Below are positions 110 through 30,720 of a DNA stretch of 30,720 nt, in pieces; positions within the stretch are counted from its first letter, which is position 1; every line of letters starts with the position of its first letter. The position numbers were made by a program, and so were the translations under genes. Below the pieces are notes generated by a model that did not search any database, was not told the DNA's origin, and saw only the letters and a list, made by a program, of their open reading frames with translations. This DNA is from an uncultured Chloroflexota bacterium (lineage in GTDB: Bacteria > Chloroflexota > Anaerolineae > Promineifilales > Promineifilaceae): NCBI GenBank assembly GCA_937958365.1, contig CALFEW010000728.1, positions 1-30,720 of the forward strand. Direction: 5' to 3'.

Positions 110-628
110 TCAAGACCTGACAGGTTTCCGAAAACCTGTCAGGTCTAAAAGCGCAGGAATGGCAACCAGGGCGATACCGCCCATTTCCAGCAAAAAGTTG
201 GGGTTGATTCCCATGAAGCCGCGATAGAGGAAGGCATCTATAGCGTGTAAGGAAATGGCGCGGAGCAGAGAAAATCCCGTCAGAAAAGCCACACCCACAA
301 CGGCCGTTACCTGCGACCGCGACAACGGCCGTAAAAAACGCACGAGCAGCAGCAAGCCCAACCCCATCAGCAACAAGACGCCGCCGATCAGCGCCCACTG
401 CAAACCACCCCGCGCCGCGTACCAATCACCGCCCCAGGCCAGGAAGCGGCCTTGCGTCGTCAGGCGACCAACGAGGTTAAACTGCTTGTTGATCGCCAGA
501 ACGCCCATACCGACGCCTAAAAAGCCATACACATTGCGCTGATGGGGATCACTCCGGCGGAAGCGCCAGGCGCACAAGATACAGAGAACGGCCGTTCCCC
601 AATATGCAGTCACCGTCAGCCACCACAT
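110..628 (-). CDS. Small multi-pass membrane protein of unknown function, last visible gene of the locus
   Basis: 172-aa ORF starting 6 nt after the DegT stop. It has 4-5 hydrophobic segments with polar motifs between them (NKQ..L...GR, W-Y..R, RAISLH..D, N..LE.GG). The C-terminal LTGFRKPVRS is encoded by the REP hairpin at 113-146. Confidence 0.75.
   Translation of the reverse strand: MWWLTVTAYWGTAVLCILCAWRFRRSDPHQRNVYGFLGVGMGVLAINKQFNLVGRLTTQGRFLAWGGDWYAARGGLQWALIGGVLLLMGLGLLLLVRFLRPLSRSQVTAVVGVAFLTGFSLLRAISLHAIDAFLYRGFMGINPNFLLEMGGIALVAIPALLDLTGFRKPVRS
113..146. repeat. REP-like perfect inverted repeat AGACCTGACAGGTTT-ccga-AAACCTGTCAGGTCT
   Basis: 15-bp perfect arms (113-127, 132-146) with a 4-nt loop. 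Each arm contains the near-palindrome ACCTG(A/T)CAGGT. A lone core ACCTGACAGG recurs at 14117-14126. Confidence 0.85.
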
Positions 629-634
629 AAAGAG

Positions 635-1777
635 TTATTCCTGACTGGACGCCCAGTCCAAAATCGCGTCGGCGACAAGGTTGGCCTTGTCCAGGCCCAA
701 TTCAGGATAAATAGGCAAGGTCATGATCTCAAAGGCCAGATTTTCTGTCTGGTCAAGGGAACCGGACAGTGGCGTTCGATTTTCGTAGGCAGGTTGCAAG
801 TGGACGGGAACCGGATACAAAACCTGGGTTTCAATGCCGCGCTCGGACAGGAAGGCGCGCAAGGCTTCACGGCGAGGCGTGCGTAAGACGTATTGATGGT
901 AAACGTGAACGGCCGTTTCCTTTACGCACGGCAGCGTCAGGGGCAGATGGGCTAACCGTTCGTTATACACCTGAGCAATGGCCTGACGACGGCCGTTATC
1001 TTCATCCAGATACGCCAATTTGACGCGCAAAATGGCTGCCTGGATGGGGTCCAGCCGCGAGTTAAGGCCGGGAATCAGGCTAATGTACCGTTCGCGCCAG
1101 CCATATTGGCGCAGCAGCCGTACATTATCGGCCAGGGTCGCATCGTTGGTGGCGATGACGCCGCCATCGCCCAACGCGCCCAAATTCTTCGTAGGGTAGA
1201 GACTGAAGGCGGCGATGTGGCCGATGGTTCCCACTTTACGGCCGTTTAGCATAGCCCCATGCGCCTGGGCGCAATCCTCGATGACGTACAAATTGTGCTG
1301 CCGGGCAACGTCCAGAATCGTGTCCATGTCGGCCGGGTGGCCGTAGAGATGGACGGGGATGATGGCTTTGAGCGTGCCGGGGAAGTGGCGCTGCGTGTGG
1401 GCAACGGCCGTTGCCAGCGCCGCCGGGTCGAGGGTGTAGGTGTCCGGGTCAATATCGGCAAAGACGGGGATGGCGCCGCAGCGCTCGATGGCTGAAATGG
1501 TGGCAACGGCCGTGTTGGACACCGAGATCACCCTGTCGCCGCTGCCAACGCCACAGGCGCGCAGAGCCAACTCCAGGGCATCCGTGCCATTGGCTACGCC
1601 GATGGCTTCTTTTGCGCCCAACCAGGCAGCAAATTCTTGTTCAAAAGCGGTTACTTCAGGCCCAAGAATGTACCAGCCGCTTTCTAAGACGCGCTGAACG
1701 GCCGTGTCTATTTCCGCTTTATGGGCTAAATAATTGGCATGAGGATTTGCCGGGACAATTTTGGCTTGATTTGTCAT
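635..1777 (-). CDS. DegT/DnrJ/EryC1/StrS-family PLP-dependent nucleotide-sugar aminotransferase
   Basis: Motifs [42 protein letters not shown] (PLP lysine), [21 protein letters not shown]. Confidence 0.96.
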
Positions 1778-1785
1778 GGGTGGTT

Positions 1786-2778
1786 TTATTCGTTATCCAG
1801 ATAGTTTTGTAGATAGTGCCGATAAAAATCGAGCGTTTTCGCCAGGCCTTCGCGCAGTCTCACTTTGGGTTCCCAGCCAACGGCCTGGTTGATTTTGCTA
1901 TAGTCGGCGTAATAATCGCCGATGTCAATGCGTTTACGGTCGGCCGGATAGGTGCGCACCACAAATTCGCCGCCGCCGTTGACGTCAACCAACAGTTGGG
2001 CCACTTCTTGCAGGCTGACAACTTCCCTGTCCCCCAAATTGTATATCTGACCGTTGGCTTCATCGCTAACGGCCGTCAGCAGCAGTGCATCCACAGCGTC
2101 ATCCACATAGGAAAAGTCACGTAATTGCTCGCCGCCCCAAACCTCAAATGGCTTCCCTTCCAACAACAGACGAATCCAGATTCCCAAGAACGTCTGGCGA
2201 GCATCTTTCACGCGCATTCGCGGGCCATAGGTGTTCGTCAGGCGCAGAGCGCAGGCGCGAATGCCATAGACGTTGTTGTACAAAATATGGTACCACTCGC
2301 CGGCCATTTTATTGATGCCGTTCACGTCAACAGGGCGTACCAGATGCTTTTCGTCCACCGGCAAATAGTCCGGTTTACCATAAATCTGGCGGGTGCTGGC
2401 AAAAACAACCTTGATGTCCGGGCTGTACTTGCGGCATGTTTCGAGGATGGAGAGTTGGGCACGGCCGTTAATCTCCAGGTCGGCGAATGGATTGCTCATA
2501 GAATCCATGTGGCTCGTCTGCCCGGCCAGATTAAATAGAAAATCATGCCCCTGGACCAGATAGTGCATACTAAACTGGTCCCGCACGTCAGAGATGTTCA
2601 CCCGAACCTGGCCTTCGATGCCTGTTATGTTAAACAGGTTGCCGCCATATTCCGGGATCAAACTATCAATCAGGGTGACTTCTGCCCCCAATTCTACCAG
2701 CTTGAAAGCCAGGTTAGAACCGATAAACCCCAGCCCACCTGTGATCAGAACTTTACGATCCTTAAAAACCTCGTGCAT
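1786..2778 (-). CDS. NAD-dependent epimerase/dehydratase (extended SDR) with NxxxK in place of YxxxK
   Basis: Rossmann [30 protein letters not shown] at the usual YxxxK position, [27 protein letters not shown]-like sequence before the ATG. Confidence 0.93.
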
Positions 2779-2816
2779 GAAACACCCCCACTTTTCTGAA
2801 CAGACCGGCTTCTGAT

Positions 2817-2866
2817 CAGGTTAACATCATAATTCCCAGGCTAACATCATAATTCCCAGGCTAACA
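2817..2866. repeat. 20-bp tandem duplication (TAACATCATAATTCCCAGGC x2 plus partial copies)
   Basis: Exact units at 2822-2841 and 2842-2861, with partial copies at 2817-2820 and 2862-2866. It overlaps the stop codon region of the GT2 gene. Confidence 0.95.
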
Positions 2867-3837
2867 CTCGATAACAAAAACAGACGCTGGAGTTTTTCAT
2901 AAACTCTTGATCTCAACAGTGTACGAGCGCCAATAATCGCCGTACGCTTATTGATTAGCGCCTCTTGCGGGCGCAGCTTAATGCTTTCCCACATAATTGC
3001 CCAGGACAGCTTATAACGGTTGCCAAACACCAGAGACATCGGAATCGCAGTGAGCGCATGAGAATAAACATGTCGCTTCAAAGCCGCCGGATTTTGCATC
3101 TGAGCAGCCAACGGGCCTTCAAACACAGTATCAACGGCCTGCAATATCTCTACCATCAATTGCCGTTGTTTTACCGTCGCCTTCATGCTCTCTTTGTGCT
3201 GCCGGTAAGCATATAAATTTTCGCAGATATACCCAACCTTGCCCAAAGCACACAAATCAAACCAGAGCTGCAAATCCAGAACATATTGATACTTGAGGTT
3301 ATAACCACCAATTTGCCGGAACGCCTCCCTACGAAACATCGGTCCACTATGCCCAATGTAGAACGTCATCGCTTTTTCAACCGCAACCACGCCCGGCATG
3401 ATGGCATCCGACGGGAAAGACACCATATTCATAAGCTGGTTACCCTTGTTGTCGTATTCGGCTATCGTTGAGTAAACAAAAACGACATCTGGGTTCGCGT
3501 CCAGCAAAGCCACCTGACGTTCAAGCGCGGTAGGCGATTTGATCCAGTCATCGGAATCCATGTGTACCATGTACTTGCCACGAACCGCATCGGTGACGTC
3601 TTTTAAGTTTTGAGCAAAACCTTTGTTTTGCTCATTGACGTACAGACGAATCCTGTCGTCCTGATCTGCATATTTTTTTATCACTTCAACAGAGTTATCT
3701 GGCGACGCATCGTCAATGATCACGATCTCGAAATCGGTGAACGTTTGCTGCAAGATTGATTCGATGGTATGCCCAATATAATCTCCATAGTTATAACTTG
3801 TGATCGTAAGTGACACTGTAGGGGATTCTTTCGTCAT
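2827..3837 (-). CDS. GT2 glycosyltransferase
   Basis: VSLTITSYNY..I..TIESIL.QTF.DFEIVIIDDASPD, MDSDDW (DXD). Start moved from 3873 to ATG 3837 (MTKESP), which has GGAGGT upstream. Confidence 0.93.
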   Translation of the reverse strand: MTKESPTVSLTITSYNYGDYIGHTIESILQQTFTDFEIVIIDDASPDNSVEVIKKYADQDDRIRLYVNEQNKGFAQNLKDVTDAVRGKYMVHMDSDDWIKSPTALERQVALLDANPDVVFVYSTIAEYDNKGNQLMNMVSFPSDAIMPGVVAVEKAMTFYIGHSGPMFRREAFRQIGGYNLKYQYVLDLQLWFDLCALGKVGYICENLYAYRQHKESMKATVKQRQLMVEILQAVDTVFEGPLAAQMQNPAALKRHVYSHALTAIPMSLVFGNRYKLSWAIMWESIKLRPQEALINKRTAIIGARTLLRSRVYEKLQRLFLLSSVSLGIMMLAWEL

Positions 3838-4036
3838 GGTAGCACTAACCTCCAGATGCTCGCGTTGGGGCAACCGTATTTACTCCGTCGGCCGCATCTT
3901 CCACACTTTTATGATTAATTCAGGAAATAACGGCAAAGGAGTTTGTTGATTTCAATCGGGGCCACATTCGGAAAATGTCGCGGTTGACAATGAATCTGCT
4001 TTGAGCATGAAGTGGTCTCGAACGAGTTAAACAGGC

Positions 4037-4063
4037 AAAAAAAAGATTCGCATCAGCACGATC
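4037..4063 (-). terminator. Possible intrinsic terminator in the spacer between the two GT2 genes
   Basis: Minus strand GATCGTGCTGATGCGAATC followed by T8. The stem is weak, with a bulge and G-U pairs. Confidence 0.3.
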
Positions 4064-4263
4064 CTTTTCTCTGGTTGCCTGAAATACTTATTAGCTCTTG
4101 TTACGCGACTGCGCAGCATGAGTTATTGATAAAGTCAATTTATGGTCGCATTCGACACCGACGGTATAAGCCAAGTTAATCTTAACAACTTACAATTCGT
4201 CTTATCATGCGGCGTTGCTACCACCTGGTTTGTGGCCTGTTCCATTGCAGAACGCCGGGCGCC

Positions 4264-5205
4264 TTATGGATATGGCGTGTCTGATATGTAACGGACAGAA
4301 CCTTTTTCCACCGGCTTGCGCAGGCCATCTACCACGCCATGCATGAGATAATAAAAGCGCTTGAATCCTTTCGGCCGGTGCAGGTGGGCAACCGGTTGGA
4401 ACGGCATGTATATTCCGAAGATGAACATCCAGGTTAATACCAGGCGCAAAATGCGCAAATCGCCTACTTTGATGTATTTGCTGAATGTCGCGCCCATACC
4501 GTAGAAGTCGCGGCGGGATAAGTTGCGCATCTCTTCCCAGGTTCGGAAACCGTCGTGCAGCACGGCAATGTCGGCATTCTCATAGACCCACCACCCCTTG
4601 TAGAGCGCCCGAATCGCCACATCTTTGTCTTCGGCGGATGGGAATTGCGCACCAGGGCCAAGCGATTGATCGAATCCTTTAATGGATTCTATGAGCGAGC
4701 GTCGAATGGCCATGCCGGCACCTAGCCCAAGCCCTTTACCGAGGCCGTGGAACGATTCAGATGGGCTATGGATGATTCGGTTTTTCTCGAAGATGATGTT
4801 TGGCGTAAAACCGTCTACCGGGTTATAAGGCAGTGGTTCTACTGTACAAAAAACGACGCCGATTTCGGAATGCTGGTCGAAGGGGGCGGTGATCTTTTGC
4901 AGCCAGTCTTCGGGCAAGAGGCAGTCGTCGTCGGTGATGACCAGATAGGGCGCGGACGAAAGACGAATGCCCAGGTTTCGGGCGTAGCAGGTGCCTGTTA
5001 TTTCAGAGTAAATGTAGCGGATACGGCCGTCTTGCAAAAATGGCGCAACCGCTTCTTCTGTTTCGCAATTTGAACTCTGGTCAATAATTAAAACTTCATA
5101 TGAAGGGTCCTGACTTTTTAAGATGGACTGCAATGTAGCTTCGATTTTGTGCCCCCGGTTTCGAGTGGCAATAATTATTGCGTAACGAGGTATTTCGTTG
5201 TCCAT
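4264..5205 (-). CDS. GT2 glycosyltransferase
   Basis: AIIIATRNR, EVLIIDQS, ARNLG, ITDDDC (DXD), GFDQSLGPG..F.SAEDKD. AGGTAGG RBS. Confidence 0.93.
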   Translation of the reverse strand: MDNEIPRYAIIIATRNRGHKIEATLQSILKSQDPSYEVLIIDQSSNCETEEAVAPFLQDGRIRYIYSEITGTCYARNLGIRLSSAPYLVITDDDCLLPEDWLQKITAPFDQHSEIGVVFCTVEPLPYNPVDGFTPNIIFEKNRIIHSPSESFHGLGKGLGLGAGMAIRRSLIESIKGFDQSLGPGAQFPSAEDKDVAIRALYKGWWVYENADIAVLHDGFRTWEEMRNLSRRDFYGMGATFSKYIKVGDLRILRLVLTWMFIFGIYMPFQPVAHLHRPKGFKRFYYLMHGVVDGLRKPVEKGSVRYISDTPYP

Positions 5206-9839: not shown

Positions 9840-9842
9840 AGT

Positions 9843-11663: not shown

Positions 11664-11720
11664 TACGCCTCAAGAGTGACTGAGATGAAGATCTGCACGG
11701 CCGTTTGCTTTGGCAATGGG

Positions 11721-12483: not shown

Positions 12484-14034
12484 TTAGTTGATCAAACCAG
12501 GTGCAGGCTGCGGGTCTGGTTGCCAGGGCCAACGCTTCTTTTCAACGGCCGTTGGCTGCCCCACGACACGTTCCATACAACTAACAGCGCCTATCATTGC
12601 CCCAAGATAAAGCATACTTTGTGTATCCCACGAAATATCTACATAAGCATAGACGAAGTGCATAGTAATATAAATGGTGGCCGTCGCGGCAATCGCGCGC
12701 AAATCGTTTGGCGGCATGCGCCGGATTGCTTGTGTACCAATCAGAACGGCCGTGCCAATAAAAAACAACATGGACAAAAAACCCCCAATACCCGTCTTCA
12801 CCCACATGTAAATAATCGAGTTGTGAGGCAAATAAGACCACCACTCGAAAAAACTAATGTCGGGCAATGGGATCAGAATGTAAAATTGCTGCCCAAAGCC
12901 CACGCCGGTGAGCGGTTTTTGATGGATCGTAAAGCTGGTATTCACATTCTCAATGATGCGATAGAGGTTTGAAGACACGTCGGCAGCATTGGCCTGATCC
13001 TCAGCAACCACAGACTTGATCGCCTGCGCCGGCAAGCCCAAAGCGCCGCTGGCATTCCAAAAAACACCGATATACACAAGACCAATAAGTACGGCGGGAG
13101 GCGTAATGAGCCAGAAGACGTGACGCTTATGAATGTAAAGCAAGATAGCTAAGAAGGCCAACCCCATAAACAAGGTGATGAAAGCGGCACGTCGCTGGGC
13201 CGCGAGATAGGTTAATAAAGCAAACGGCAACACCGGAATCAAGGCAAAGCGTTTGACGGCCGAACCGTTATACAACCAGACTGCCAAAAACAAAATAAAA
13301 AGTGTGTTCAAATGGACCGCTGCCGAATGATCCATGATGGCATCCACACCCGCCAAACTGCTGTTCAACGTAAAAACAAAATAATAAACGCCATAAATGC
13401 TCTCAATCGTCAAAGCCAAAATAGCTGCCCACATGAGGTGGCTGAAATGTTCTCGTTTGTCGAGCAAATTGCTTGTCAGGATCACCATGGCAATCAGATA
13501 AAAAATCGGGCGTGTTTCCCACAAGGCAATGTTCACGCTCCCCCCGGTAGCCACGCCATAAAACAGGCCAACTGCCACAAAAACGAGAAATACCACGGCC
13601 GGCCAAAATATCTCACTGACATAAAACTGCAATCGCCGCTGCATCAAACCACGGCCTAACCAGGAAACGGCCGTTACCACAATAAACGCCTCCAATGGGC
13701 TGATAATCAGCGCATCATGCAAAAACAAAATAGATTCGCGGCTCGAAAAGTTCTTCAGGAAAGGATACCAGGGCATCAACACCCCATCACCGGTCAACCC
13801 CAGGAATACAATCAAATAAATCCCGTAACGCGGTTGGTAAAGAACAAGCGCCAGACCAAACAAAAAAATCACCCAGGCAATCGAACTTGGCTTAGGTCCT
13901 CCACGCAACATCAACAAAGCAAAAAGCGATGTCATGCCAAGAATAGATAGAAACCAGAAAGACCAGACAAATGCTGAATTCAGCTTCCGTCTGTCTACTG
14001 ATTGAACCTGACTCCGATACAGATAACTTTCCAT
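12484..14034 (-). CDS. O-antigen ligase / Wzy polymerase family membrane protein
   Basis: About 12 hydrophobic segments, QRRAAFI, and a large loop with R..E......I...PLTGVGFG followed by PHNS..YMWVKTGIGG (Wzy_C-type signature). Confidence 0.88.
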   Translation of the reverse strand: MESYLYRSQVQSVDRRKLNSAFVWSFWFLSILGMTSLFALLMLRGGPKPSSIAWVIFLFGLALVLYQPRYGIYLIVFLGLTGDGVLMPWYPFLKNFSSRESILFLHDALIISPLEAFIVVTAVSWLGRGLMQRRLQFYVSEIFWPAVVFLVFVAVGLFYGVATGGSVNIALWETRPIFYLIAMVILTSNLLDKREHFSHLMWAAILALTIESIYGVYYFVFTLNSSLAGVDAIMDHSAAVHLNTLFILFLAVWLYNGSAVKRFALIPVLPFALLTYLAAQRRAAFITLFMGLAFLAILLYIHKRHVFWLITPPAVLIGLVYIGVFWNASGALGLPAQAIKSVVAEDQANAADVSSNLYRIIENVNTSFTIHQKPLTGVGFGQQFYILIPLPDISFFEWWSYLPHNSIIYMWVKTGIGGFLSMLFFIGTAVLIGTQAIRRMPPNDLRAIAATATIYITMHFVYAYVDISWDTQSMLYLGAMIGAVSCMERVVGQPTAVEKKRWPWQPDPQPAPGLIN

Positions 14035-14346
14035 CTAATTCATTCGTCTCAACAAAACCATCTGCCCTTCGGCAGAAAGAAAGACATTTCAGGCGCAGCC
14101 CGCCAACAAAACGTTCACCTGACAGGCTTCTCTTGATCTTCGCTTCAAAGCTGATTCAAGAAAAAATACGCAAAGCTAATGAGCAGACAAACAACCAACA
14201 AAACCTGTTGGCGACGGCCTAACGGGACCTTCCAAAACAACAGGCCGCCTACAAAACAAAGGACAATAAATAAGACAAATAGCTTCATAACAAACGGTAA
14301 ATCAATAGCGCCGGCCTAGAGACGGCGCACGTCATGGCCTCAGCCT

Positions 14347-15069
14347 CTACAAAGACAACAACCGCGAAATGGTACGCGGCGTGGCTATCTTGATCCGATT
14401 TAAGATAACACCCTTCATTTCCATGTGATCAATATCATCAAGCGCCAACCGCACATCTTCAACAACCGTTACCCCCTGATGAACCACCAAAACGCCGGCC
14501 GAAGCCAACGAGGCCAGGGGAACAGCGTCACTCGTCGCCCGCAAAGCCGGAATATCCAGAATCAAATAATCAAATCGAGTCTCCAACTCATTCAGAATCT
14601 CTTTGATAATTTGACTGCGCGCCATCACCGGTCTGTCATCCCTTTCCAAAACACCAGCCGGCAAATAGGAGAAATTTGACCACCCCGTGGGCGCAACCAC
14701 GTCTTCCAAAGCCGCTCTATTGGTAATCACGGCCGCTAAACCTTCATTATCCGGGGCAATAAATGGCGAAGGCGAAGGCCACCACCAATTCAATTCAATC
14801 ACACAAACTTTGGCTCCTAGATCGTGGGCCATCACAACGCCTAAAGCGCGTGAATTAAAAGTGACGCCCTCGTTGCGCAAAGCCGCAACCAGCGCCAAAC
14901 GCTTGGGCATCTCTGCCTTGCGATTCATGCGCGTGACCATCTGGCGCAGCCTATCCACAACCACACCATCAAAAATCTGGATTGGGTCTCCATCCCCTCC
15001 TGGCAAAACCAGAGGATCAAACTGCGATTCCTTTTTACGTCTTCGTATCATTTGCATACCACCAACCAT
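14347..15069 (-). CDS. CpsD/CapB-like BY-kinase homologue with degenerate catalytic motifs
   Basis: Order and spacing of BY-kinase elements: ALVAALRNEGVT (Walker A without Lys), VCVIELN (Walker A-prime DxD lost), FDYLILDIPA (Walker B), GVLVV..G.T, GVILNR. No C-terminal Tyr cluster. Confidence 0.8.
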   Translation of the reverse strand: MVGGMQMIRRRKKESQFDPLVLPGGDGDPIQIFDGVVVDRLRQMVTRMNRKAEMPKRLALVAALRNEGVTFNSRALGVVMAHDLGAKVCVIELNWWWPSPSPFIAPDNEGLAAVITNRAALEDVVAPTGWSNFSYLPAGVLERDDRPVMARSQIIKEILNELETRFDYLILDIPALRATSDAVPLASLASAGVLVVHQGVTVVEDVRLALDDIDHMEMKGVILNRIKIATPRTISRLLSL

Positions 15070-15160
15070 CTCACCAAAAAGTCAACTCTAACGATTCCAA
15101 CTAAACTTTTGCCAGGCCCTTGCGCCAACATTTGTGAAACCATACATGGAGGCCCATCTA

Positions 15161-16651: not shown

Positions 16652-17745
16652 ATAGCCACTTCTACTTCGGTTGACTCTTGTTCCACTATTTCACCCTGAA
16701 CACGCTTGCTGCCTTCTAGCAATAAATTTGCATCGTTCGGTTTTCGCTGCCAGAAGCGTCTTTTACGGGGCGTCACATCTGGTATTTCCGCCATGACAGG
16801 CAGGTCCAGGCGATTTTGTACGTCAATCGGCAGACGGAAACTACGATCTAGAATCGCAGCGCCAACAATGGCGCCTCCGCTTAACATAAAACCGACCGCA
16901 ATAAAAATGATGACATTAACGGCCGTTTCCTTCAGCGAAGTGACCGAATCTGTGGGCAGCTTGGGGGCATCAATAACAAAATAAGTCTGCCGCATATCGC
17001 TTTCAATCTGGGCCATGGCCAGCCGGGAATTCTCCTCTTTGTCAAGCGCACTGGCATATCGAGCAGCGGCGAGGTTAATGTTGGCCTGCAAACGATCAAT
17101 TTCCAATTGCTCTTCACCTGGCCGATCCCCACGGATAGGCGCGGGATTCGTGCGCAAGAAGTCCTTCATGTCCTCGCGCGCCTGCGATAGCTCTTCTTCA
17201 TAAGTTCCAATGACCTCGCTGAAGAAGACCTGCGCCGACTCACTTTCGGCTCTTCTGGCGTTTATTTGCCATTGCAGGTAGCTTTCAATGGTGGCGCTCA
17301 CAAGTTGATAAGCTAATTCCGGGTCCTCATTGGCGGCATTGATGGACATTTGATTATCGCCAATCGTACTGGCCCAGACATTTTTGCGTGTTTCTGCGAG
17401 AATCTCATTGACCGCGTTGTTTCCCTGGCCCATATCAGATTCCAACTTTGTTTGGGCTACCACAGCGCGGACAAAGGCATTGGTCTGCATCAAGTCCGTT
17501 ACTTGTTTGGACACAGCCTGAGAAGGCGTTGTCCACCAGCTTGTGCTGTTACTGTTTATCGCTGTGAGGGAAGCCAGCAGAGATTCATCCTGCACGTAGA
17601 GAACCCCCTGAGCAATGTATTTAGGCTCTACTCGGTAGAAAACAAAATAGGCGCTGAGCGCCGTCATCAGAACGATGGGGAGTAAATAGAGCCAGCGATG
17701 ACGGAAATAGCTTTCCAGTAACCGATAAATTATTAAGCGAATCAT
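16648..17745 (-). CDS. Wzz/CpsC-like polysaccharide co-polymerase (chain-length determinant)
   Basis: N-terminal TM after FRHRW, a coiled-coil extracytoplasmic region, VIDAPKLP then a Gly-rich second TM, and cytoplasmic LDRS...DVQNRLDLPVMAEIP. Confidence 0.88.
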   Translation of the reverse strand: MIRLIIYRLLESYFRHRWLYLLPIVLMTALSAYFVFYRVEPKYIAQGVLYVQDESLLASLTAINSNSTSWWTTPSQAVSKQVTDLMQTNAFVRAVVAQTKLESDMGQGNNAVNEILAETRKNVWASTIGDNQMSINAANEDPELAYQLVSATIESYLQWQINARRAESESAQVFFSEVIGTYEEELSQAREDMKDFLRTNPAPIRGDRPGEEQLEIDRLQANINLAAARYASALDKEENSRLAMAQIESDMRQTYFVIDAPKLPTDSVTSLKETAVNVIIFIAVGFMLSGGAIVGAAILDRSFRLPIDVQNRLDLPVMAEIPDVTPRKRRFWQRKPNDANLLLEGSKRVQGEIVEQESTEVEVAI

Positions 17746-17793
17746 AGGATTCTCCGTTAGCTATCAACTTTCAGAAATGTTTCATACTGTAGC

Positions 17794-17833: not shown

Positions 17834-17973
17834 ACTTTAAACCCTGTTTCTGAACATGTATATTAAGTTATGCCTGACTAAGCTGCTGCCTGGCCTTTAA
17901 TTTTCTAGCAAGTATGTTTACACCTGTTGAATGGCGGGAAACGGCCGTTGCCCCTTCCCTTCCCTACCATTCA

Positions 17974-20149: not shown

Positions 20150-22270
20150 TTATTGCTCCTTACGCCGCCCGGTAAACTGCCGGAACACCGTGCCGGTGTC
20201 ATTGCCCCATTCCCAGTTGGCTAAAATGCCCACCCGTCGAATCGTCAGGCGGTTAAATTGTGGATAGACGTCCGTCAGGGCGCGATACAACACCGGTTCG
20301 TCGTTGACATAAGCCATGTAATGCACGCCATCAAACGCCACGCGCAGGCGATACGGCCGTCCCCAATGAATGCGCCCGCCCACATTGCTCCACACAGCGT
20401 CAAAAATTTCCTCAAAACCATTGATATAAAAGAAGGACGAAATCGAAGCGCCCTGGTAAGAATCATCCAGCCAGGTATTCACCAATAGCTGATTGTGTTC
20501 ATCCTGCCAGAAGACAAACCCGCCACGGCCGTGTTGCCAATCACCGCGCACAGAACCGGGGGGCGTCACTTCCACCTCCAGTTCGGCAAACGCGGGATCA
20601 TCCCAGGGAATGGTGTAAAACGTGCGGCCAGGATTGGGACTGGTAGGGCCGCCAACCACGCCGGCCGCTTCATCTCCGCGCAGGGTGATGGTTCCCCGGC
20701 CAAAATCTTTCTGCCACACTTTGCCGCCCACGCTGGTTTTGTGGCCGGCCAGATCGGCCGCTTCCCCGGCAAAAGTGTCGGCAACGGCCGTTACCCTTTT
20801 CGCCGGCTGCCAGGACGAGGCAAACGCAAATTCGGCCGGAACCGCAACCGCTCGTGGATGGGCCTCTAAATCACGCAGCGCCACATCATCACCCGCCGCC
20901 CCGCAGAAACCGACGCCGCCCGCGTTTTGCAGTCTGGCGTCTGTGAACCAGTCGTTAAAGAGGAAACGGCCGTTCACCGCCACCGAAAAACGCTCGCCAT
21001 CATCCACAATCTGCACCGAATTGGCCGCATCCGCCAGCCAACCATGCGCCGCATCCACGCCCATTTCCGCCACGACGCCGTCTAGCCGCAACAGCAGACG
21101 GCAGCGGTCTTGCCGCATTGCCAGGCTCCAATAATTGGCCTCATCCTGAAAACGCCAGACCAACTGCGCCTCGGCGTCTGGCGCAGCCAACGTCACCAAA
21201 GCATGAACCAGGCCGGCCGGTTCACCGGCGTCTAAAATCGCCAGACTGTCGTTTTCCAAAGCGCGCGCGCCTACGGCCGTGCGCGCAAAATCGCCCTGAT
21301 AGACGCGCCACACGCCGCCCTGTTCTGCCGGAGAATCGGTCAGACGGCCGTTCCCCACCAATCGGTCGGCCAGGTGCGCTGTGCCGTACCAGCTATCCAG
21401 AGTGGCGATTTTTTGCACGGCCGTGCCATACACCCGCGAATCTACGCGAAAACCAATCTGCCCCAACACGCTCTGATGCACACCGGCATACACCTCCGGC
21501 GCATCCTCAAAGGCATCAATCGCCAACGGCCGCATCCGCGGAAAAGCCGCCAGCCCATGCGCCCCCGGCAGCGACGCCGCATAATACGCCGCTCCTTTCT
21601 CGCGCAAAATCACCACAAAATAAATCGGGATGTTTTGCAGGCCGCGCAAAACGGGCAGCGTCCCGCCCGTCGCCCGCACCCACAGTTCGCCGTTTTCTGC
21701 CCCGGTGGCATGAACGATCAACGAATTGCCTTGCGTGACGGGATCGGTCGGATTTTCTGCAGGGAACCAGCCCACCGCCAGATTTTCGTCCAGCAGACCG
21801 CTCTCGACGCGCCGATAATGCCGGTTTAGCCAGAACCAGCGCCGCCACTGCCGCACAAAATGCTTCTTATTGCCGCCCCGGGTCCAGGCGATGAGGCGCT
21901 GCGGGATGGTTTGGGTTTCGCCGCCCAACAGCCAACGCTGCAAACGCCCCGGAATGCTCTGCCCCAGATCGCCGACCTGCGACGTGTTGTGCCCGTTTAA
22001 CATATGCACGCCAAACGCCAGCCCGTTTTCGCGCCGATAGGGGCCATAGGCCAGACCAGAACGCCCCCAACCCGGCTGCCGCAGCGGCTGGATGCGCAGC
22101 GCTCCGCCATCCGTGCTGATGACGCGCTCGACGTCCATGCCGCCCCGGCGCACGCCGGCTGCATTTCGGCTGCCGATCACCTCCCCGGCGCTTAAGGTTT
22201 GCACAAAGGAATCAGTAAAATAAAGGTTGGATACGGTGGTCTTTTCAGACTTGGCAATATGCATAGTCAC
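20150..22270 (-). CDS. 706-aa protein of unknown function, no signal peptide, probably three tandem beta-sandwich modules
   Basis: Long ORF tightly coupled to both neighbours. Recurring module starts YFTDSF / HLADRL..GRL.......GGVW / VADTF....DL.......GGKVW. Start is GTG 22270 or ATG 22264. Confidence 0.85.
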   Translation of the reverse strand: MTMHIAKSEKTTVSNLYFTDSFVQTLSAGEVIGSRNAAGVRRGGMDVERVISTDGGALRIQPLRQPGWGRSGLAYGPYRRENGLAFGVHMLNGHNTSQVGDLGQSIPGRLQRWLLGGETQTIPQRLIAWTRGGNKKHFVRQWRRWFWLNRHYRRVESGLLDENLAVGWFPAENPTDPVTQGNSLIVHATGAENGELWVRATGGTLPVLRGLQNIPIYFVVILREKGAAYYAASLPGAHGLAAFPRMRPLAIDAFEDAPEVYAGVHQSVLGQIGFRVDSRVYGTAVQKIATLDSWYGTAHLADRLVGNGRLTDSPAEQGGVWRVYQGDFARTAVGARALENDSLAILDAGEPAGLVHALVTLAAPDAEAQLVWRFQDEANYWSLAMRQDRCRLLLRLDGVVAEMGVDAAHGWLADAANSVQIVDDGERFSVAVNGRFLFNDWFTDARLQNAGGVGFCGAAGDDVALRDLEAHPRAVAVPAEFAFASSWQPAKRVTAVADTFAGEAADLAGHKTSVGGKVWQKDFGRGTITLRGDEAAGVVGGPTSPNPGRTFYTIPWDDPAFAELEVEVTPPGSVRGDWQHGRGGFVFWQDEHNQLLVNTWLDDSYQGASISSFFYINGFEEIFDAVWSNVGGRIHWGRPYRLRVAFDGVHYMAYVNDEPVLYRALTDVYPQFNRLTIRRVGILANWEWGNDTGTVFRQFTGRRKEQ

Positions 22271-22278
22271 CTTGATGG

Positions 22279-25200
22279 TCAGTTTCTACGGCGCAGGACA
22301 AAAAAGCCGCCCAGAACCAAAATAGCCATGACGCTCACGCCAACAGCCAGGATGCCCGGCGAGAATACGGCCGTTTCCGGTTCCGGCAATAGCGCAGTCG
22401 CCGTAGATTCCGGCTGCGGGCTGGCCGCGCTGGATACGGCATCCGGTACGGCCGTTGCCACAACGTCCGTTGTCGCAACTTCGGTCGGCGGAAGTGTGGT
22501 TGGTTCCGGCTGCGCGATGGGCGCGTCTGGCCCCGCCTGGAACTGTTCGGCGACCTCGGCGGCGGTTAGCGCCCGGCCATACAGCGCCAGCCGGTGATAT
22601 TCACCCAACCAGGGACGGTCCAACGAAAACTCGTTGCCCAGCGCCAGGCGATAGCTGGCGTCCCAACCGGCCAGGTCGCCGCCAATTTGTCCGGCGGCGG
22701 CCACTTCGCCGTTCTGATAAAGCGTCGCCTGCCCGCTGGCGTCGCGGGTATACACCAGATGCACCAGGTCGGTCGTCACTACGTTGTCGGCTGTGATCAG
22801 CGACGGCACGCCATTCTCCGACGTGGCGCTGCTGCGCAGGCGCACGTCGTACGCGCCAAACTCTTGCCCCAACGTCAGGTTGCGGTAAAACGGGTCAAAC
22901 GACAGGCTGACGATGCGCGCCGGGCCATCCTGGTCTACGCTGGCCGGTTTTAACCAGACTGCCAGCGTCAGTTCGTTGTTGGCAGGGATGGCGCTGTTGA
23001 GTTTGGCGGCGGCCTGTTCCGTCGCCAGAATGGTGGGCGCTTGCAGCAGCAGCCCACCGTCCGGCAGCCAGGTAACGGCCGTTTCCTCGCCAATCAACAA
23101 ATCCAACGGCTCGCCCACGCCAGACACGTCGCGCACCACATTGCCCGCGCCTTCGGCAAACGTGTACAGCGCCAGCGGCCCCTGGATGGCGGCAGAGTCG
23201 GCCAGCGCTTCGGGCGGCACGGCCGTTTCTGCGGCTTCCGGCTGCATTACCTCTGGCGTCGCGGCGCTGTCCGATGTGGTCGTCAAGCGGTTTAACTCGT
23301 CGTTGCGCCACAGGTGGACAAACTGCGACTCGTCATAAGCGATGCTGACGATGTCCAGGTCGCCGTCGCCGTCCAGGTCTACCGTTTGCCCGCCCAGGTG
23401 GCTCTCTTGGCCTTCGTCAACCAGCTTCTCGGTGAAGTTGCCCTGGCCGTCGTTGATCCACACGGCCGTTGCCTTGCGGCCGCGATGTTCGGCCAACACC
23501 AGGTCTATGTCGCCGTCGCCGTCCATGTCGGCGGCGTCCAGGCTGTTGGTGGTGGCCTGGCTGACGATGAGGCTGCGCGGCCAATCGCCGCTGGTCGGAT
23601 CGGCCGGCTGCGCCCACCAGAAGGTCTGGGCGTCGCTGGCCTCACCGTTTTCTTCGGTGACGATGATGTCGAGACGGCCGTCGCCGTTCAAATCGGCCAA
23701 TTCGGTGCGGTCCGGGTAGAGCGCTTCGTCAAACGTCCCAATCGGGAAAGCGGCCCAATCATCGGAACCGTCGCCGGGGTTGCGATACCATTCCACCCGC
23801 TTGGAATCGCCGGTGGTCGCGGCAACGTCCAGGTAGCCGTCGCCGTCTACGTCGCCAAAGGCGAAACCTTCGTCGGACGGATTGGCGCTGACGTGAACAC
23901 GCGGCCAATCACCGGCGGACGGATCGGCCGGCAGCGTGAAGTAATAGATGCCGTTGCCGCTGGAAATGGCGACAACCGGCGGCGAATCGGCGGACAAAAC
24001 GGCCGTGCGATACCCCTGCGCGCCCAGTTCATGGCTGGCCGCCGGCACGTCGCCCACACGAACGGCCGTCCAGTCCGTCGCGGCGGCGTCTGTGGCTTCC
24101 AGCCAGTAGACGACCAGGTCGCCTTCGCTCTTTTGCGCCAGCACGTCGGCCAGGTCGTCGCCATCTACGTTCAGGGTGAGGAAGGCGTGCATGTCGGCGG
24201 GAAATTCGCGGCGCGGCCAGTCGCCCAACAAATCGCCGCCGGGATTGGCATACCAGTAGCGCCCGGAGAGGATGTCTATACGGCCGTCGCCATCCAGATC
24301 ACCAAAGCCCAGGCCAAAGGTTTGCGCGTGTTGGTCAGTGATTTGCTTGTAGGTCCAGCGATCCAGCGCCCCGGCCGCATCCAGTCGGTTTTCCCACAAT
24401 CTAACCGGGGGATTGCCGGTCCAGTTGGCCCCATAAATGTCATAATCGCCATCATTGCCGATGTCGGCGACGACGCCGTTGTGCAGGCCACCCGTACCGA
24501 CCACCTGTTTTTCCCAGGAGGTTGCCTGCCCGTCCACGTTGAACAGGATCATGATTTCTTGCGCGGCGGAGGTGTGCATCTGGCCCAGCACCACGTCCAG
24601 ATCGCCGTCCAGGTCCATGTCGGCGGCTTGCAGAGTGTGGGCTTTTTCCAGGCCGGGCAGGATGGTGTGGCGCGTCCACGCGCCGGTGGGATCGCCATTG
24701 TCGGCCGACCACCAGTCTACGTCGGCGGTGTTTTCGGAGCTGGAGAAGAGGATGTCCATACGGCCGTCCTGGTCCAAATCCACCACCAGCGCTTTGAAGT
24801 CGGAATCGGCCGCGCCGATGTCGTAGGGGGTCCAGTTGGCGGCGATGCGGGCCGCTGCGCCGCCAGGATTATGCGCCCATTGGCCGCGCAGGACCAGATC
24901 AACGTGGCCGTCACCGTCCACGTCACCGCTGGTCATGCCCTCGTTGCCGGTGTTCAGGCCGCTCAAATCCACCTGGCTCCAGGTATTAACGGCCGTCTGG
25001 AAAAAAATCATGACAGCATCCTGGCGGCGGGTAGCCACGTCCAGGAAACCGTCATCGTCGAAATCGGCCACGTGTACATCTTTGCCCCAACTGCCGATGG
25101 TTCCGATGGTGTGGCGGGTCCAGGTTTCGCCGCTGAAGGGATCGCCGGACGGCCGTGGGTTTTCAAACCAGACAAGGTTGTCCGGGCCGTCGCCATCGGG

Positions 25201-25617
25201 CACAACGATGTCCAGATCGCCATCGCCATCTACGTCGCCTAAACGGCCGTCGGTGGTGAATTCGTTGTTGGGCGTGGCGATGACGGTTTTTTGCCAGGTG
25301 GGGTAATGGTACCAGTTCAGTTTTTCGTCGGTGATGCCGCCGAGGATCAGGTCGGGGAAACCATCGCCGTCTATGTCGCCGACCAGTTTCACGTCGCCGC
25401 CCACGTCGCCGTCAATTTCTACCAGGTCGAAGGGGATGTCGGCTAATTGGAGGGCCGGATTGCTTTGGGGCGGGCTGGCGAAGGCTACGGCCGTGCCCAC
25501 CGCCATGTTGACGCGCCGCTTGATGCCATCAATAGACGGCCGTCGCCAGGCAATATACGCGCTGCCCAGCAGCAGCATGGCGATGATCAGATAAACTGCT
25601 AAACGTCTCGTTTTCAT
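22279..25617 (-). CDS. Large surface protein: FG-GAP/VCBS repeats (two probable 7-blade propellers), LamG/ConA-like domain, Pro/Thr linker, C-terminal TM plus basic tail
   Basis: 13 DxDxDGxxD-type motifs plus one degenerate unit. LamG-like LALYTF.EG.G..V.D.SG...W.HLVYT.....TLY.NG...L.LGN....W.G....LALY.RAL...EV. Ends GILAVGVSVMAILVLGGFFVL-RRRN. Start ATG 25617 with AAGGAAG RBS. Confidence 0.9.
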   Translation of the reverse strand: MKTRRLAVYLIIAMLLLGSAYIAWRRPSIDGIKRRVNMAVGTAVAFASPPQSNPALQLADIPFDLVEIDGDVGGDVKLVGDIDGDGFPDLILGGITDEKLNWYHYPTWQKTVIATPNNEFTTDGRLGDVDGDGDLDIVVPDGDGPDNLVWFENPRPSGDPFSGETWTRHTIGTIGSWGKDVHVADFDDDGFLDVATRRQDAVMIFFQTAVNTWSQVDLSGLNTGNEGMTSGDVDGDGHVDLVLRGQWAHNPGGAAARIAANWTPYDIGAADSDFKALVVDLDQDGRMDILFSSSENTADVDWWSADNGDPTGAWTRHTILPGLEKAHTLQAADMDLDGDLDVVLGQMHTSAAQEIMILFNVDGQATSWEKQVVGTGGLHNGVVADIGNDGDYDIYGANWTGNPPVRLWENRLDAAGALDRWTYKQITDQHAQTFGLGFGDLDGDGRIDILSGRYWYANPGGDLLGDWPRREFPADMHAFLTLNVDGDDLADVLAQKSEGDLVVYWLEATDAAATDWTAVRVGDVPAASHELGAQGYRTAVLSADSPPVVAISSGNGIYYFTLPADPSAGDWPRVHVSANPSDEGFAFGDVDGDGYLDVAATTGDSKRVEWYRNPGDGSDDWAAFPIGTFDEALYPDRTELADLNGDGRLDIIVTEENGEASDAQTFWWAQPADPTSGDWPRSLIVSQATTNSLDAADMDGDGDIDLVLAEHRGRKATAVWINDGQGNFTEKLVDEGQESHLGGQTVDLDGDGDLDIVSIAYDESQFVHLWRNDELNRLTTTSDSAATPEVMQPEAAETAVPPEALADSAAIQGPLALYTFAEGAGNVVRDVSGVGEPLDLLIGEETAVTWLPDGGLLLQAPTILATEQAAAKLNSAIPANNELTLAVWLKPASVDQDGPARIVSLSFDPFYRNLTLGQEFGAYDVRLRSSATSENGVPSLITADNVVTTDLVHLVYTRDASGQATLYQNGEVAAAGQIGGDLAGWDASYRLALGNEFSLDRPWLGEYHRLALYGRALTAAEVAEQFQAGPDAPIAQPEPTTLPPTEVATTDVVATAVPDAVSSAASPQPESTATALLPEPETAVFSPGILAVGVSVMAILVLGGFFVLRRRN

Positions 25618-25653
25618 TGGGTACGCTTCCTTCCCTTGGGTCAAGGGACAGCG

Positions 25654-26514
25654 TCAAATTGCTGCGTCTCCGGGTGTTGGCGGCGTTGGCCCGTTTCCTG
25701 AGAATGGGTAGTGATGAAAGAGTTCTTTTCCCCGAAAAAAGCATTCCAGCCATTCCCCATCAGACACGTCGGCGAGGGTTAACCAATGGGCGTCTGGCAG
25801 AAGCCTGGACATTTGGGTTTTATGTTCCGCCAGGGCAGCACGCTTCTGGTCCACCGAATCACTTATGTTAACTGAATAGCGAAAATCAGCCAACAACCGC
25901 AGGCCAGAGCGCATGGTCAGGGTGTTTTTGAGGATGGCGCGCCGGTCGCCCAGGGCGTTTTGGCCCAGGCCGACCCAGGGCCAATGATACCAGGCCCAGA
26001 CCGGATATTCGTAGATGGCGGCTGGGTGGCCGACCTGTTGCAGGGCGGCGAGGACGGCGTGGGTGGTGCTGTAGTGGTCGGGTGGCGGTTCGTGGCGATA
26101 GGGGATAAACACCTGTTCTGGCCGGAGATCGGTCAGCAATTTGACGATTGGGGGGACGGCCGTTTCTTTTTGTTCAGTGACACGGCCGTCTGTCAGGTCT
26201 AAAAAGGTTACGTCTTCAGCCGCCACGCCCAGCGTGCGGCAGGCCGCCAGCGCCTCGTCGGCCCGGCGGGCGATGAGGTCAGCTTCGGGAATCAGGCCGG
26301 CGTGAGAGCGACGGCCGTCGGTCATAAACACAACGGAAACGTGCGCATTCCTGGCGCGTTTGCCGATGATCGTACCGCCGCAGCCCAACGTCTCGTCGTC
26401 CTGGTGCGGCGCAAAAACTACAGCTTTTTGCGGCCAAAATGCTTCGTCCGGTTGTTGGGCGCGCGCTTCTAGCGAACGCCAAAGAAGCCGTTGTATGCTG
26501 GATTGGATAGACAT
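25654..26514 (-). CDS. PIG-L/LmbE-family Zn-dependent deacetylase
   Basis: VFAPHQDDETLGCGG, VVFMTDG..SH, RADEA..AC..LG, PPDH, K..AL..H.TQ. Confidence 0.94.
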   Translation of the reverse strand: MSIQSSIQRLLWRSLEARAQQPDEAFWPQKAVVFAPHQDDETLGCGGTIIGKRARNAHVSVVFMTDGRRSHAGLIPEADLIARRADEALAACRTLGVAAEDVTFLDLTDGRVTEQKETAVPPIVKLLTDLRPEQVFIPYRHEPPPDHYSTTHAVLAALQQVGHPAAIYEYPVWAWYHWPWVGLGQNALGDRRAILKNTLTMRSGLRLLADFRYSVNISDSVDQKRAALAEHKTQMSRLLPDAHWLTLADVSDGEWLECFFRGKELFHHYPFSGNGPTPPTPGDAAI

Positions 26515-26566
26515 TTTAAAACCACCCTGGGTTTAGACTGGTTCACGGCCGTGTGATAATCTGGTT

Positions 26567-28769: not shown

Positions 28770-28817
28770 AGGCGTGTTGACCTGTTGTTTCCTGACGATA
28801 TGGATCCGGGGAAGGCC

Positions 28818-28850
28818 AGATGGGTCCAATCTCCAAGATTGGACCCATCT
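28818..28850. other. Perfect 15-bp hairpin between the epimerase and GT4 genes
   Basis: AGATGGGTCCAATCT (28818-28832), loop CCA, AGATTGGACCCATCT (28836-28850); 15 nt past the epimerase stop. No U-tract. Confidence 0.75.
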
Positions 28851-28865
28851 AACCAGGTGAAACGA

Positions 28866-29834: not shown

Positions 29835-29850
29835 CGGAATCTCCCTTAAA

Positions 29851-29874
29851 ATTTCGGATTTTGGATTTCGGATT
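29851..29874. repeat. Short tandem heptamer repeat (ATTTYGG x3.4)
   Basis: ATTTCGG ATTTTGG ATTTCGG ATT in the spacer just upstream of the epimerase RBS. Confidence 0.7.
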
Positions 29875-29912
29875 GAAGCTGTTCAGCGCCGCACGCCATC
29901 AGCGGCCAGACA

Positions 29913-30720
29913 TTACAAGCGCACGATGCGGCTCTTGCGTTTTCCCTGGATGGCGTTGCGCGAGTCTACAATCAAGCCGGCATGGTCCGTAATGAAGTCC
30001 CAATCGTAACTCGCATGATTGGTGACGATGACGACGCAATCGGCCTGTTGCAGGGTTACGGCCGTTAACTCAATCGAATGAAACGACGTGCCGGCCGCCA
30101 CAAAGTCCTGCACGTAGGGATCATGATAGCTCACCTCCGCGCCGCGTTCTTCCAGCAAATCAATCACGTCAATGGCCGGGCTTTCGCGCACGTCGCCAAT
30201 GTTCGGCTTGTAGGCGACGCCCAAAACCAATACCCTGCTGCCATTAATCGCTTTGCGATCGTCATTCAGGGCCATCGCCACTTTGCCCACCACGTAATCC
30301 GGCATGTGGCTGTTCACGTCGTGGGCCAATTCAATAAAGCGGGCTGTGTAATTGAGTGTACGCAGTTTCCAGCTTAGATAGTGGGGGTCCACCGGAATAC
30401 AATGCCCGCCAAGCCCAGGTCCCGGATAAAAAGGCATAAAGCCATACGGCTTCGTCGCCGCCGCCCCGACCACTTCCCAAACGTCCAGCCCCAGTTTGTC
30501 ACACATCAAGGCGATTTCGTTGACCAGGCCAATGTTGACAGCGCGGAACGTGTTTTCCAACAGCTTCACCATTTCGGCCGCGGCTGTGCTGGAAACCGGC
30601 ACCGGCTTTTCGACGACGGTGCTGTATAAGGCCAGGGCAACTTCCAGGCAATCTGGGGTGATGCCGCCAATGACTTTGGGCGTATTGAACATGTTGTAAT
30701 CGGTACGGCCGGGATCAATA
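29913..30720 (-). CDS. Nucleotide-sugar (UDP-HexNAc-type, WbpA/WecC-like) 6-dehydrogenase, 5-prime truncated
   Basis: The frame stays open to the window edge (IDPG, end of the PERxDPG motif). AEMVKLLENTFRAVNI, PGPGLGGHCIPVDP (catalytic Cys), LGVAYKPNIGDVRESPA. Confidence 0.95.
   Translation of the reverse strand, partial: IDPGRTDYNMFNTPKVIGGITPDCLEVALALYSTVVEKPVPVSSTAAAEMVKLLENTFRAVNIGLVNEIALMCDKLGLDVWEVVGAAATKPYGFMPFYPGPGLGGHCIPVDPHYLSWKLRTLNYTARFIELAHDVNSHMPDYVVGKVAMALNDDRKAINGSRVLVLGVAYKPNIGDVRESPAIDVIDLLEERGAEVSYHDPYVQDFVAAGTSFHSIELTAVTLQQADCVVIVTNHASYDWDFITDHAGLIVDSRNAIQGKRKSRIVRL

Follow-up and report, generated by a model that had tools for sequence, protein, structure and literature searches.

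An iterated 8-bp palindrome with lineage dialects and a strand-polar flank footprint in a wastewater family of Chloroflexota

Introduction

The stretch of DNA examined here (the window: the whole 30,720 nucleotides analysed, from contig CALFEW010000728.1 of GenBank assembly GCA_937958365.1) comes from an uncultured bacterium of the Chloroflexota and holds a minus-strand gene cluster for polysaccharide biosynthesis, through which a single 8-bp palindrome, ACGGCCGT (hereafter the word), recurs in genes and spacers alike. Since the 1990s, highly iterated palindromes (HIPs), HIP1 among them, have to our knowledge been reported from cyanobacteria alone, and the original prediction, made from the letters of the window alone, was that the word is a HIP1-like palindrome maintained at the level of DNA, possibly by an orphan methyltransferase (MTase). 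Here, we describe the abundance, conservation and dialects of the word, together with a compositional footprint in the DNA that surrounds it, before weighing the mechanisms that might account for them.

Copies of the word at the locus

An exact count gives 59 copies in the window, close to the 58 or so counted earlier by hand, at a density of 1 per 521 bp, while dinucleotide-preserving shuffles hold a mean of 0.53 copies and never more than 2. The first copy starts at position 300 and the last occupies 30058-30065, as originally placed, and the three copies predicted to be intergenic, at 11697, 17941 and 26545, all lie between open reading frame (ORF) calls. The copy at 25536, expected to be read as Arg-Pro, is in phase 2 of the minus-strand gene at 22279-25644; together with the copy at 26545 it falls within the densest block of the window (Table 1).

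Table 1. Positions of the word and of other features in the window
Feature	Position	Strand	Context
59 copies of ACGGCCGT	300..30065	none	Across the minus-strand polysaccharide-biosynthesis gene cluster; basis: shuffle and gene content
Dense block, 11 copies in 2.2 kb (about 5 per kb)	300..2468		DegT aminotransferase gene, adjoining short ORF 110-628 and start of SDR gene
Word-free stretch, 2.5 kb, GC 0.46-0.51	2469..5022		Glycosyltransferase genes
Intergenic copy	11697..11704		Between genes 10413-11663 and 11721-12374
Word-free stretch, 3.2 kb	13675..16918		BY-kinase-like gene and Wzx-like flippase, in the low-GC centre of the cluster; DNA probably younger or transferred
Intergenic copy	17941..17948		Between genes 16648-17745 and 17974-19242
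Densest block, 26 copies in 6.2 kb (4.2 per kb), GC 0.59-0.63	20353..26552		706-aa protein, FG-GAP/LamG protein, PIG-L deacetylase
Intergenic hairpin repeat, 13-bp arms ATGGGTCCAATCT / AGATTGGACCCAT, short loop	28815..28863		Not part of the word system

Abundance across the genome and its proteins

The window (our contig C728) belongs to genome G000, an assembly of 5.42 Mb in 1,121 contigs (GC content 57.6%, 95% complete), in which the word occurs 11,275 times, that is once per 481 bp or 2,078 times per Mb. It is by far the top 8-mer of this genome, the next-ranked words all overlapping it, and its observed-to-expected ratio (O/E) is 81, 76, 36 and 24 under Markov models of orders 0, 1, 2 and 3, respectively. 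The remaining fifteen words of the form NCGGCCGN have only 218-702 copies each, so that the enriched unit is the full octamer.

Genes hold 89% of the copies (10,046 of 11,275), divided among phases 0, 1 and 2 as 5617, 3098 and 1331, and a further 1,163 are intergenic (1.66 per kb, in spacers with a GC content of 50%), which bears out the claim that the word is present in every codon phase and between genes. When synonymous codons are shuffled within each gene, a procedure that preserves the proteins and the codon usage of each gene, 1,575 genic copies are expected (1252, 276 and 47 by phase), and the 6.4-fold excess of the observed number marks the word as a DNA-level signal, as had been proposed. 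Three outcomes named in advance as telling against the idea, namely loss of the enrichment under a codon null, confinement to one locus and confinement to one reading frame, were each looked for and none was seen.

The imprint on the proteome that was claimed for the word is also plain. TAV is the most over-represented tripeptide, with 5,687 occurrences against 801 expected (7-fold), while its reverse, VAT, stands at 0.84 times expectation; moreover, TAV is encoded as ACG-GCC-GTN in 98.8% of cases, against 19.5% expected from codon usage. NGR is enriched 5.9-fold, and [NDHY]GR is encoded by the word in 91% of cases, against an expected 6%. The word overrides both codon choice and amino-acid sequence.

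Site anatomy, conservation and turnover

The flanks of the word are symmetric, with GG-N-A on the 5' side and T-N-CC on the 3' side, and loosely defined, flank positions being conserved at most 55% (G at -4 in 54% of sites) and no longer conserved repeat surrounding the word. The suggestion that it is often extended to AACGGCCGTT holds only weakly: 52% of sites have A at -1, and the complete extension is seen at 2,785 of the 11,275. Complementarity between mirrored flank positions equals the product of their marginals, the two sides being statistically independent, which marks the sites as something other than a hairpin or an element of the repetitive extragenic palindromic (REP) type. Spacing between copies is near-exponential (near-Poisson), with a deficit below 30 bp and no periodicity seen.

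Selectivity for the exact word is evident from its near neighbours. Under a Markov model trained on the genome with the word masked, every one-off variant with its change at one of the internal positions, 2-7, is scarcer than expected (O/E 0.24-0.79), and those altered at the outer positions, 1 and 8, are enriched (O/E 1.4-2.3). When G000 is compared with its closest relative, G005, of which 1.2 Mb was used, 758 kb can be aligned at about 81% identity; 80% of G000 sites (1,242 of 1,546) and 86% of G005 sites are intact at the orthologous position, against 25% for phase-matched control octamers 12-30 nt away. Single-base differences between sites fall mostly at position 1 or 8, and unshared sites align base for base, with 1-5 differences and no indels. 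ACGGCCGT is a genome-wide DNA word written by point substitutions, rather than a mobile repeat or a protein motif, and the rewriting of proteins, the depletion of near misses and the conservation of sites reveal a strong fixation bias for the exact 8 bp.

Dialects across the family

All six other genomes of the same genus carry 6,500-12,600 copies each and sister families have the word at background, while a survey of the family finds more than 2,000 copies in 80 of 151 genomes (maximum 15,492), among them assemblies of only 2-7 contigs. Named records in which the word is dense are labelled 'Chloroflexota bacterium' or 'uncultured Ardenticatenaceae', and the public sequencing runs that contain this DNA are wastewater and activated-sludge metagenomes.

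Other words are abundant elsewhere in the family. TGCCGGCA, the base-wise complement of ACGGCCGT and itself a palindrome, is hyper-abundant where ACGGCCGT is at or below background, with 8,850 copies in genus g26 and 3,639-6,775 in each of the five genomes of genus g30. Further dialects were read from sampled stretches of ACGGCCGT-poor genera: TCGGCCGA reaches 1.6 per kb in genome G017 and 1.1 per kb in G070 (O/E about 63-65) and GCGGCCGC 1.5 per kb in G039 (O/E 61), with TGCCGGCA at 1.7 per kb in G032 (O/E 49). Samples from genera g25 and g28 have no dominant word, and CCGGCCGG, a candidate fifth dialect in G019 and G007, was rejected as compositional, having an O/E of 10-13 and no flank skew. 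ACGGCCGT is the local dialect of a system common to one wastewater Chloroflexota family. ACGGCCGT, TCGGCCGA and GCGGCCGC share a CGGCCG core and TGCCGGCA has GCCGGC, such that the predicted system built on a CGGCCG or GGCC core describes three of the four words but not TGCCGGCA, nor the footprint set out below, which needs the full 8-mer.

Two further observations concern short words in these genomes. A sample of G014 from genus g9 (L177-L178) has no dominant palindrome but about 23 copies each of the overlapping words CCCATCAC, CCATCACC and ACCCATCA within 27 kb, pointing to a dispersed or tandem repeat of another kind. Several hexameric palindromes are avoided in G000, where GAGCTC occurs 9 times, ACGCGT 11, GGGCCC 24, CCTAGG 13, GTCGAC 28 and GTGCAC 41, against 1,700-3,100 copies predicted by composition, and GGGCCC is nearly absent from every family sample (L159-L240); in contrast to the enriched word, this avoidance suggests heavy, long-standing restriction pressure.

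A strand-polar footprint around complete words

The DNA on either side of the word has a GC skew that is antisymmetric about it. At fourfold-degenerate sites the skew is +0.62 at 3-6 nt on the 5' side, with its mirror image on the 3' side, and it decays with distance through +0.49, +0.35, +0.18, +0.08 and +0.06 to about zero near 200 nt. It is the same for both gene orientations and is present in intergenic DNA too. All four dialect words show the same polarity, G-rich 5' and C-rich 3', in their own genomes, TGCCGGCA included, although its internal halves have the opposite polarity. Around every complete copy of the local dialect word lies a zone of about 25-150 nt, symmetric between the strands, in which the strand 5' of the word is depleted in C and rich in G.

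This footprint is specific to the complete local 8-mer, not to CGGCCG or GGCC. Full octamers in G000 have a skew of +0.237/-0.228 (n=9,356), whereas it is zero at sites matching seven of the eight positions, ACGGCCG[ACG] (n=2,799), at bare CGGCCG cores (n=3,091) and at internal one-off variants (n=943), as well as at the words of other dialects and at unrelated GC-rich palindromes.

The footprint also grows with site age. In the comparison of G000 with G005, the skew at 3-12 nt is +0.34/-0.30 where both genomes share the site and +0.24/-0.20 in the word-bearing genome where the site is lineage-specific, while the aligned position in the relative lacking the word has +0.09/-0.12 over the same interval and zero beyond 24 nt. 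Differences between site-less and site-bearing genomes amount to a net loss of C from the 5' flank, with C>G at 482:250 (p = 7e-18), C>T at 550:399 and C>A at 226:144. Cytosines of the 5' flank differ at 41-47% of positions against a baseline of 31%, an approximately 1.4-fold faster turnover, and guanines there differ at 17-24% against 28%. Divergence at fourfold-degenerate sites near shared words is not raised (0.33-0.36 versus 0.37), and it rises slightly with distance from the sites, from 0.353 to 0.371.

Phages and plasmid-like elements

Contigs retrieved from IMG/VR by a triple-word pattern carry ACGGCCGT at 2-3.7 per kb. One, L258, is a real tailed phage, with genes for a terminase, a portal protein (2e-71) and a major head protein (1e-89), and its word density of 3.5 per kb exceeds that of its host. 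The contigs with the highest densities, L247 and L256, encode FtsK/SpoIIIE-like, ParA-like and transglycosylase proteins and no virion proteins, and look like conjugative or plasmid-like elements of these hosts. The antisymmetric skew is absent at the 203 sites of these phage and plasmid-like contigs.

Search for a protein that reads the word

As the original prediction invoked an orphan MTase, to be sought by its co-distribution with the word, the obvious candidates are DNA MTases, and none of the four families searched (PF00145, PF01555, PF02086 and PF02384) tracks either the word or its dialects. C5-cytosine MTases (PF00145) were not found in G000-G004, of which G002 is assembled in 7 contigs, nor in the 2-contig G121 with its 12,370 word copies, though failure to find a gene in a draft genome does not prove that it is missing. 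In the two TGCCGGCA genomes examined (G032 and G065) the C5-MTases are only 28% identical, one of them being HhaI-like, and the family was rejected as driver both on these absences and because those two enzymes are unrelated. MTase repertoires differ greatly from one member of the family to another: G008, a word-rich genome of genus g3, encodes seven C5-cytosine MTases, while most of genus g1 encodes none.

The sole solid PF01555 enzyme of G000, a protein of 313 aa (L001:883-1824, contig C650) encoded beside a gene for an Rcas_1661-family thioredoxin-like lipoprotein, has a DPPY motif, of the N6-adenine-type beta class, and is nearest MboIIA and CcrM. Homologues at 60-72% identity occur in about 600 genomes, including Planctomycetota, Cyanobacteria, Bacillota and Ignavibacteriota, an unusually high conservation across phyla for a solitary MTase, and it was rejected because the homologue loci in other phyla carry no copies of the word. 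Dam/DpnM-like D12 MTases (PF02086; closest DpnM and Dam) are present in 126 of 151 family genomes, covering every dialect as well as wordless genera, and were not found in the word-rich genus g3, a dialect-independent pattern that likewise led to their rejection. PF02384 MTases were rejected for their variable presence.

Among other proteins, Vsr was found in 0 of 31 genomes and a NotI-type endonuclease in 1 of 31; RecC was not found in the word-bearing genomes searched, nor was NucS in its own search. Proteins of the PD-(D/E)XK type and the size of AddAB are missing from G002, G032 and G017, and among the genomes checked occur only in G012 and G121, as a pair only in G012. MutS paralogs, MutL, ComEC and DprA are encoded, but their wide distribution makes them uninformative about the driver.

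Comparison with HIP1

The cyanobacterial words comprise HIP1 itself, GCGATCGC, and the alternatives GGGATCCC, TCGATCGA and CAGGCCTG (Elhai 2015, PMC4390886; Xu, Lawrence & Durand 2018, PMC5861425; Rodriguez-Cruz et al. 2026, PMC13756078). HIP1 and ACGGCCGT are both 8-bp palindromes found about 1-2 times per kb, with O/E values of tens to hundreds, in all gene frames and in spacers; both spread by substitution without indels, are conserved beyond codon effects, have palindromic extensions and give way to replacement words in some lineages. In abundance, presence in all frames and non-coding DNA, conservation, gain by substitution and the replacement words of sublineages, then, the Chloroflexota word behaves as a HIP, and the description of it as HIP1-like, DNA-level and lineage-wide stands. 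It is not HIP1 proper, since the word differs from GCGATCGC and its hosts are labelled Chloroflexota or Ardenticatenaceae; HIP1 is built on a CGATCG/GATC core in cyanobacteria, whereas the ACGGCCGT family uses CGGCCG or GCCGGC cores.

Two further differences concern enzymes and flanks. HIP1 co-occurs with the MTases DmtC and DmtA, and no cognate MTase tracks ACGGCCGT, for which no co-occurrence with orphan MTases recognising an internal core was seen in the four families searched. A strong, age-dependent, 8-bp-specific footprint is documented here for ACGGCCGT; a search of HIP1 papers turned up no reference to GC skew. A small sample of HIP1 flanks, 137 sites in 18 cyanobacterial loci, has a weaker skew of the same polarity (+0.14/-0.20 at 6-12 nt and +0.15/-0.07 at 12-24 nt).

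A proposed reading

The reading that we favour, at a probability of roughly 0.4, is that an 8-bp-specific factor starts a strand-polar step of repair or recombination at the word. A lineage-specific factor would read the whole 8-bp duplex, probably as a symmetric dimer, the form of recognition to which two independent and identical flanks point, and would mark the word for a strand-polar DNA transaction. This could consist of a nick or break at the word followed by 5'-to-3' removal or resynthesis of one strand, which would leave the 3'-ended strand, that of the 5' flank, single-stranded on both sides and liable to lose cytosines. Of the four bases, cytosine is the most vulnerable in single-stranded DNA, where deamination and the bypass of abasic sites yield C>T, C>G and C>A changes, and an exposed 3'-ended strand would give the footprint the right polarity, the right base and its dependence on age. 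The word would act as a 'self' signal for repair or recombination, in logic like Chi or the GATC of MutH, and selection or biased conversion would maintain its density. Phages that infect these hosts would copy the word, but their exposure to the chromosomal transaction would be short, and because phage DNA is short-lived no scar would form on their copies.

Several points weigh against this reading. The nick or break is deduced from base composition only. The near-zone skew of 0.5-0.6 at fourfold-degenerate sites is very high if it is only a by-product of mutation, and together with the greater conservation of G it raises the possibility that the flanks are a selected, extended signal. No word-reading protein was identified among the enzyme families searched, and the canonical partners of a Chi- or MutH-like system are not conserved, going by the searches for RecC, AddAB and Vsr. 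The substitution flux is an unpolarised comparison of site-less and site-bearing genomes, and the genic counts come from our own simple codon-model ORF caller (4,608 genes, 87% coding), which makes a few local errors.

A broader version of the same reading is that the family possesses a sequence-programmed system of DNA maintenance, hitherto undescribed, in which a genus-switching 8-bp factor repeatedly opens the chromosome at all copies of the word and leaves a scar of lost cytosines on the 3'-ended strand, and that HIP1, with its weaker skew of like polarity, works by the same mechanism; we regard this as speculative and rather doubtful.

Alternative explanations

An orphan MTase acting on the CGGCCG or GGCC core, coupled to methyl-directed mismatch repair, which would use the sites to tell the strands apart, with selection for dense sites or biased correction, was the driver first proposed and is also Elhai's model for HIP1; several points favour it. 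DmtC and DmtA set a precedent in recognising internal cores of HIP1 (PMC4390886), a 'Dam-like' enzyme of PF02086 can make GGm4CC (PMC6105098), MutS paralogs and MutL are at hand, divergence rises slightly away from sites, and 5'-to-3' excision directed from a nick would give the observed polarity of the skew. It is the distribution of the enzymes that makes this explanation unlikely: C5-MTases were not found in the word-rich genomes listed above and are unrelated in the two TGCCGGCA genomes examined, the DPPY enzyme extends to wordless phyla, the Dam/DpnM-like enzyme occurs in wordless genera but was not found in g3, PF02384 is variable and Vsr was not found in the 31 genomes. Moreover, the footprint requires all 8 bases rather than the core. 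Bias from Dcm/Vsr repair and avoidance of restriction sites likewise shift the frequency of specific short palindromes; for the word system, Vsr was not found in the 31 genomes, most of the genus has no C5-MTase, and an enrichment of 25-80-fold with rewriting of proteins greatly exceeds any effect known from very-short-patch repair. A restriction target should be avoided, and the word is instead enriched to that degree in the host and dense in phage and plasmid-like contigs.

Uptake sequences, the USS of Pasteurellaceae and the DUS of Neisseriaceae, occur about once per kb in both orientations, form dialects around a conserved core, imprint peptides and spread by drive. The word resembles them as a short sequence with lineage dialects and a peptide imprint that accumulates by drive and not by transposition, at some 1-2 copies per kb in genes and spacers and with conservation of its sites, such that competence with a preference for word-bearing DNA, molecular drive and dialects arising through receptor divergence could be imagined. 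ComEC and DprA are present, though as near-universal proteins they do not discriminate, and HIP1 boosts transformation efficiency and correlates with DNA-transfer genes (10.1101/2024.09.10.611283; PMC13756078). However, enrichment is not confined to the host chromosome, since the tailed phage carries the word more densely than its host although phages do not spread by transformation; the strict palindromy is unusual, USS and DUS being normally non-palindromic and having no known strand-polar flank footprint; and uptake does not predict an age-dependent, strand-polar loss of C. We consider this account improbable.

For HIP1, Xu et al. (2018, PMC5861425) proposed a binding site for a protein of the nucleoid or one that organises the chromosome; here the word and its G-rich arms would be under selection for their part in chromosome architecture. 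Palindromy and two independent, identical half-contexts suit a dimeric duplex binder, and flank G is more conserved than baseline, but the copies are spaced in near-Poisson fashion without visible periodicity, the skew extends to 100-150 nt, further than a binding site would account for, the arms are absent from phage copies and nothing in the proposal explains why the flux should be specifically a loss of C. It has, in our judgement, little chance of being correct.

Phages gain from carrying the Chi sites of their hosts, and a canonical Chi site for RecBCD or AddAB would, like the word, be an over-represented 'self' octamer whose 3'-tail geometry exposes the strand 5' of the site, the strand that is C-depleted here. 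A Chi-like role has been suggested for HIP1 (10.1101/2024.09.10.611283). Yet Chi is non-palindromic and is read as single-stranded DNA, the word is about ten times denser, the footprint decays over tens of nucleotides and not kilobases, and RecC and AddAB are not conserved in word-bearing genomes; canonical Chi is weakly refuted by gene content and is very improbable overall.

A trivial origin in a protein motif, codon bias, a mobile repeat (REP or miniature inverted-repeat transposable element) or misassembly can be set aside as having a negligible chance: TAV and NGR are frequent peptides and the metagenome-assembled genome is in 1,121 contigs, but motif and codon bias are ruled out by the copies in all phases and between genes, the codon shuffle, the single way of encoding TAV and the lack of VAT enrichment, mobile elements by arm pairing at the level of chance, an 89% genic location and flanks conserved at most 55%, and an assembly artefact sits poorly with 80 of 151 genomes that include assemblies of 2-7 contigs.

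Word-poor islands and other features of the window

The middle of the gene cluster (12484-19242), which encodes an unknown 516-aa protein, the BY-kinase-like gene product, the Wzx-type flippase and two further unknown proteins, has a GC content of 0.48-0.51 and 5 word copies in 6.8 kb, against 4.2 per kb in the densest block, and was probably acquired more recently. Across the genome the O/E of the word climbs with gene GC content from 29 to 87, beyond compositional expectation, and word density may serve as a clock of residence time.

An Rfam scan of the window gave no match. Stretches 85-97% identical to the intergenic hairpin at 28815-28863 lie at dozens of places in each of the five genomes of the same genus that were searched, and G000 has about 16 exact matches to 11 nt of an arm and 4 matches to the full hairpin, three of the four intergenic. 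The hairpin resembles a small REP-like family, with no relation to the octamer.

Significance for the family and for iterated palindromes

Our literature search found no paper describing ACGGCCGT or any iterated palindrome in Chloroflexota. New here are the distinct words of sister genera, a flank footprint that arises by loss of C and only at full words, its growth with age and its absence from phage copies. A second, independent system in Chloroflexota makes the phenomenon a general one, and the apparent absence of a cognate MTase challenges the main hypothesis for HIP1, while the strand-polar scar of C loss constrains the chemistry involved.

For those working with these organisms, the approximately 7,300 extra TAV and xGR tripeptides distort codon and peptide statistics, word-poor islands stand out and so can flag recently acquired DNA, and the word is a possible host marker with which to assign phages and plasmids to a family abundant in activated sludge. 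The dialect switches permit phylogenetic profiling for the factor that reads the word, which, like the scar and the apparent lack of a cognate MTase, is a handle not available so far in work on HIP1, and if such a genus-switching factor exists and is shared with HIP1, they would offer a direct comparative route to the protein behind a 30-year puzzle.

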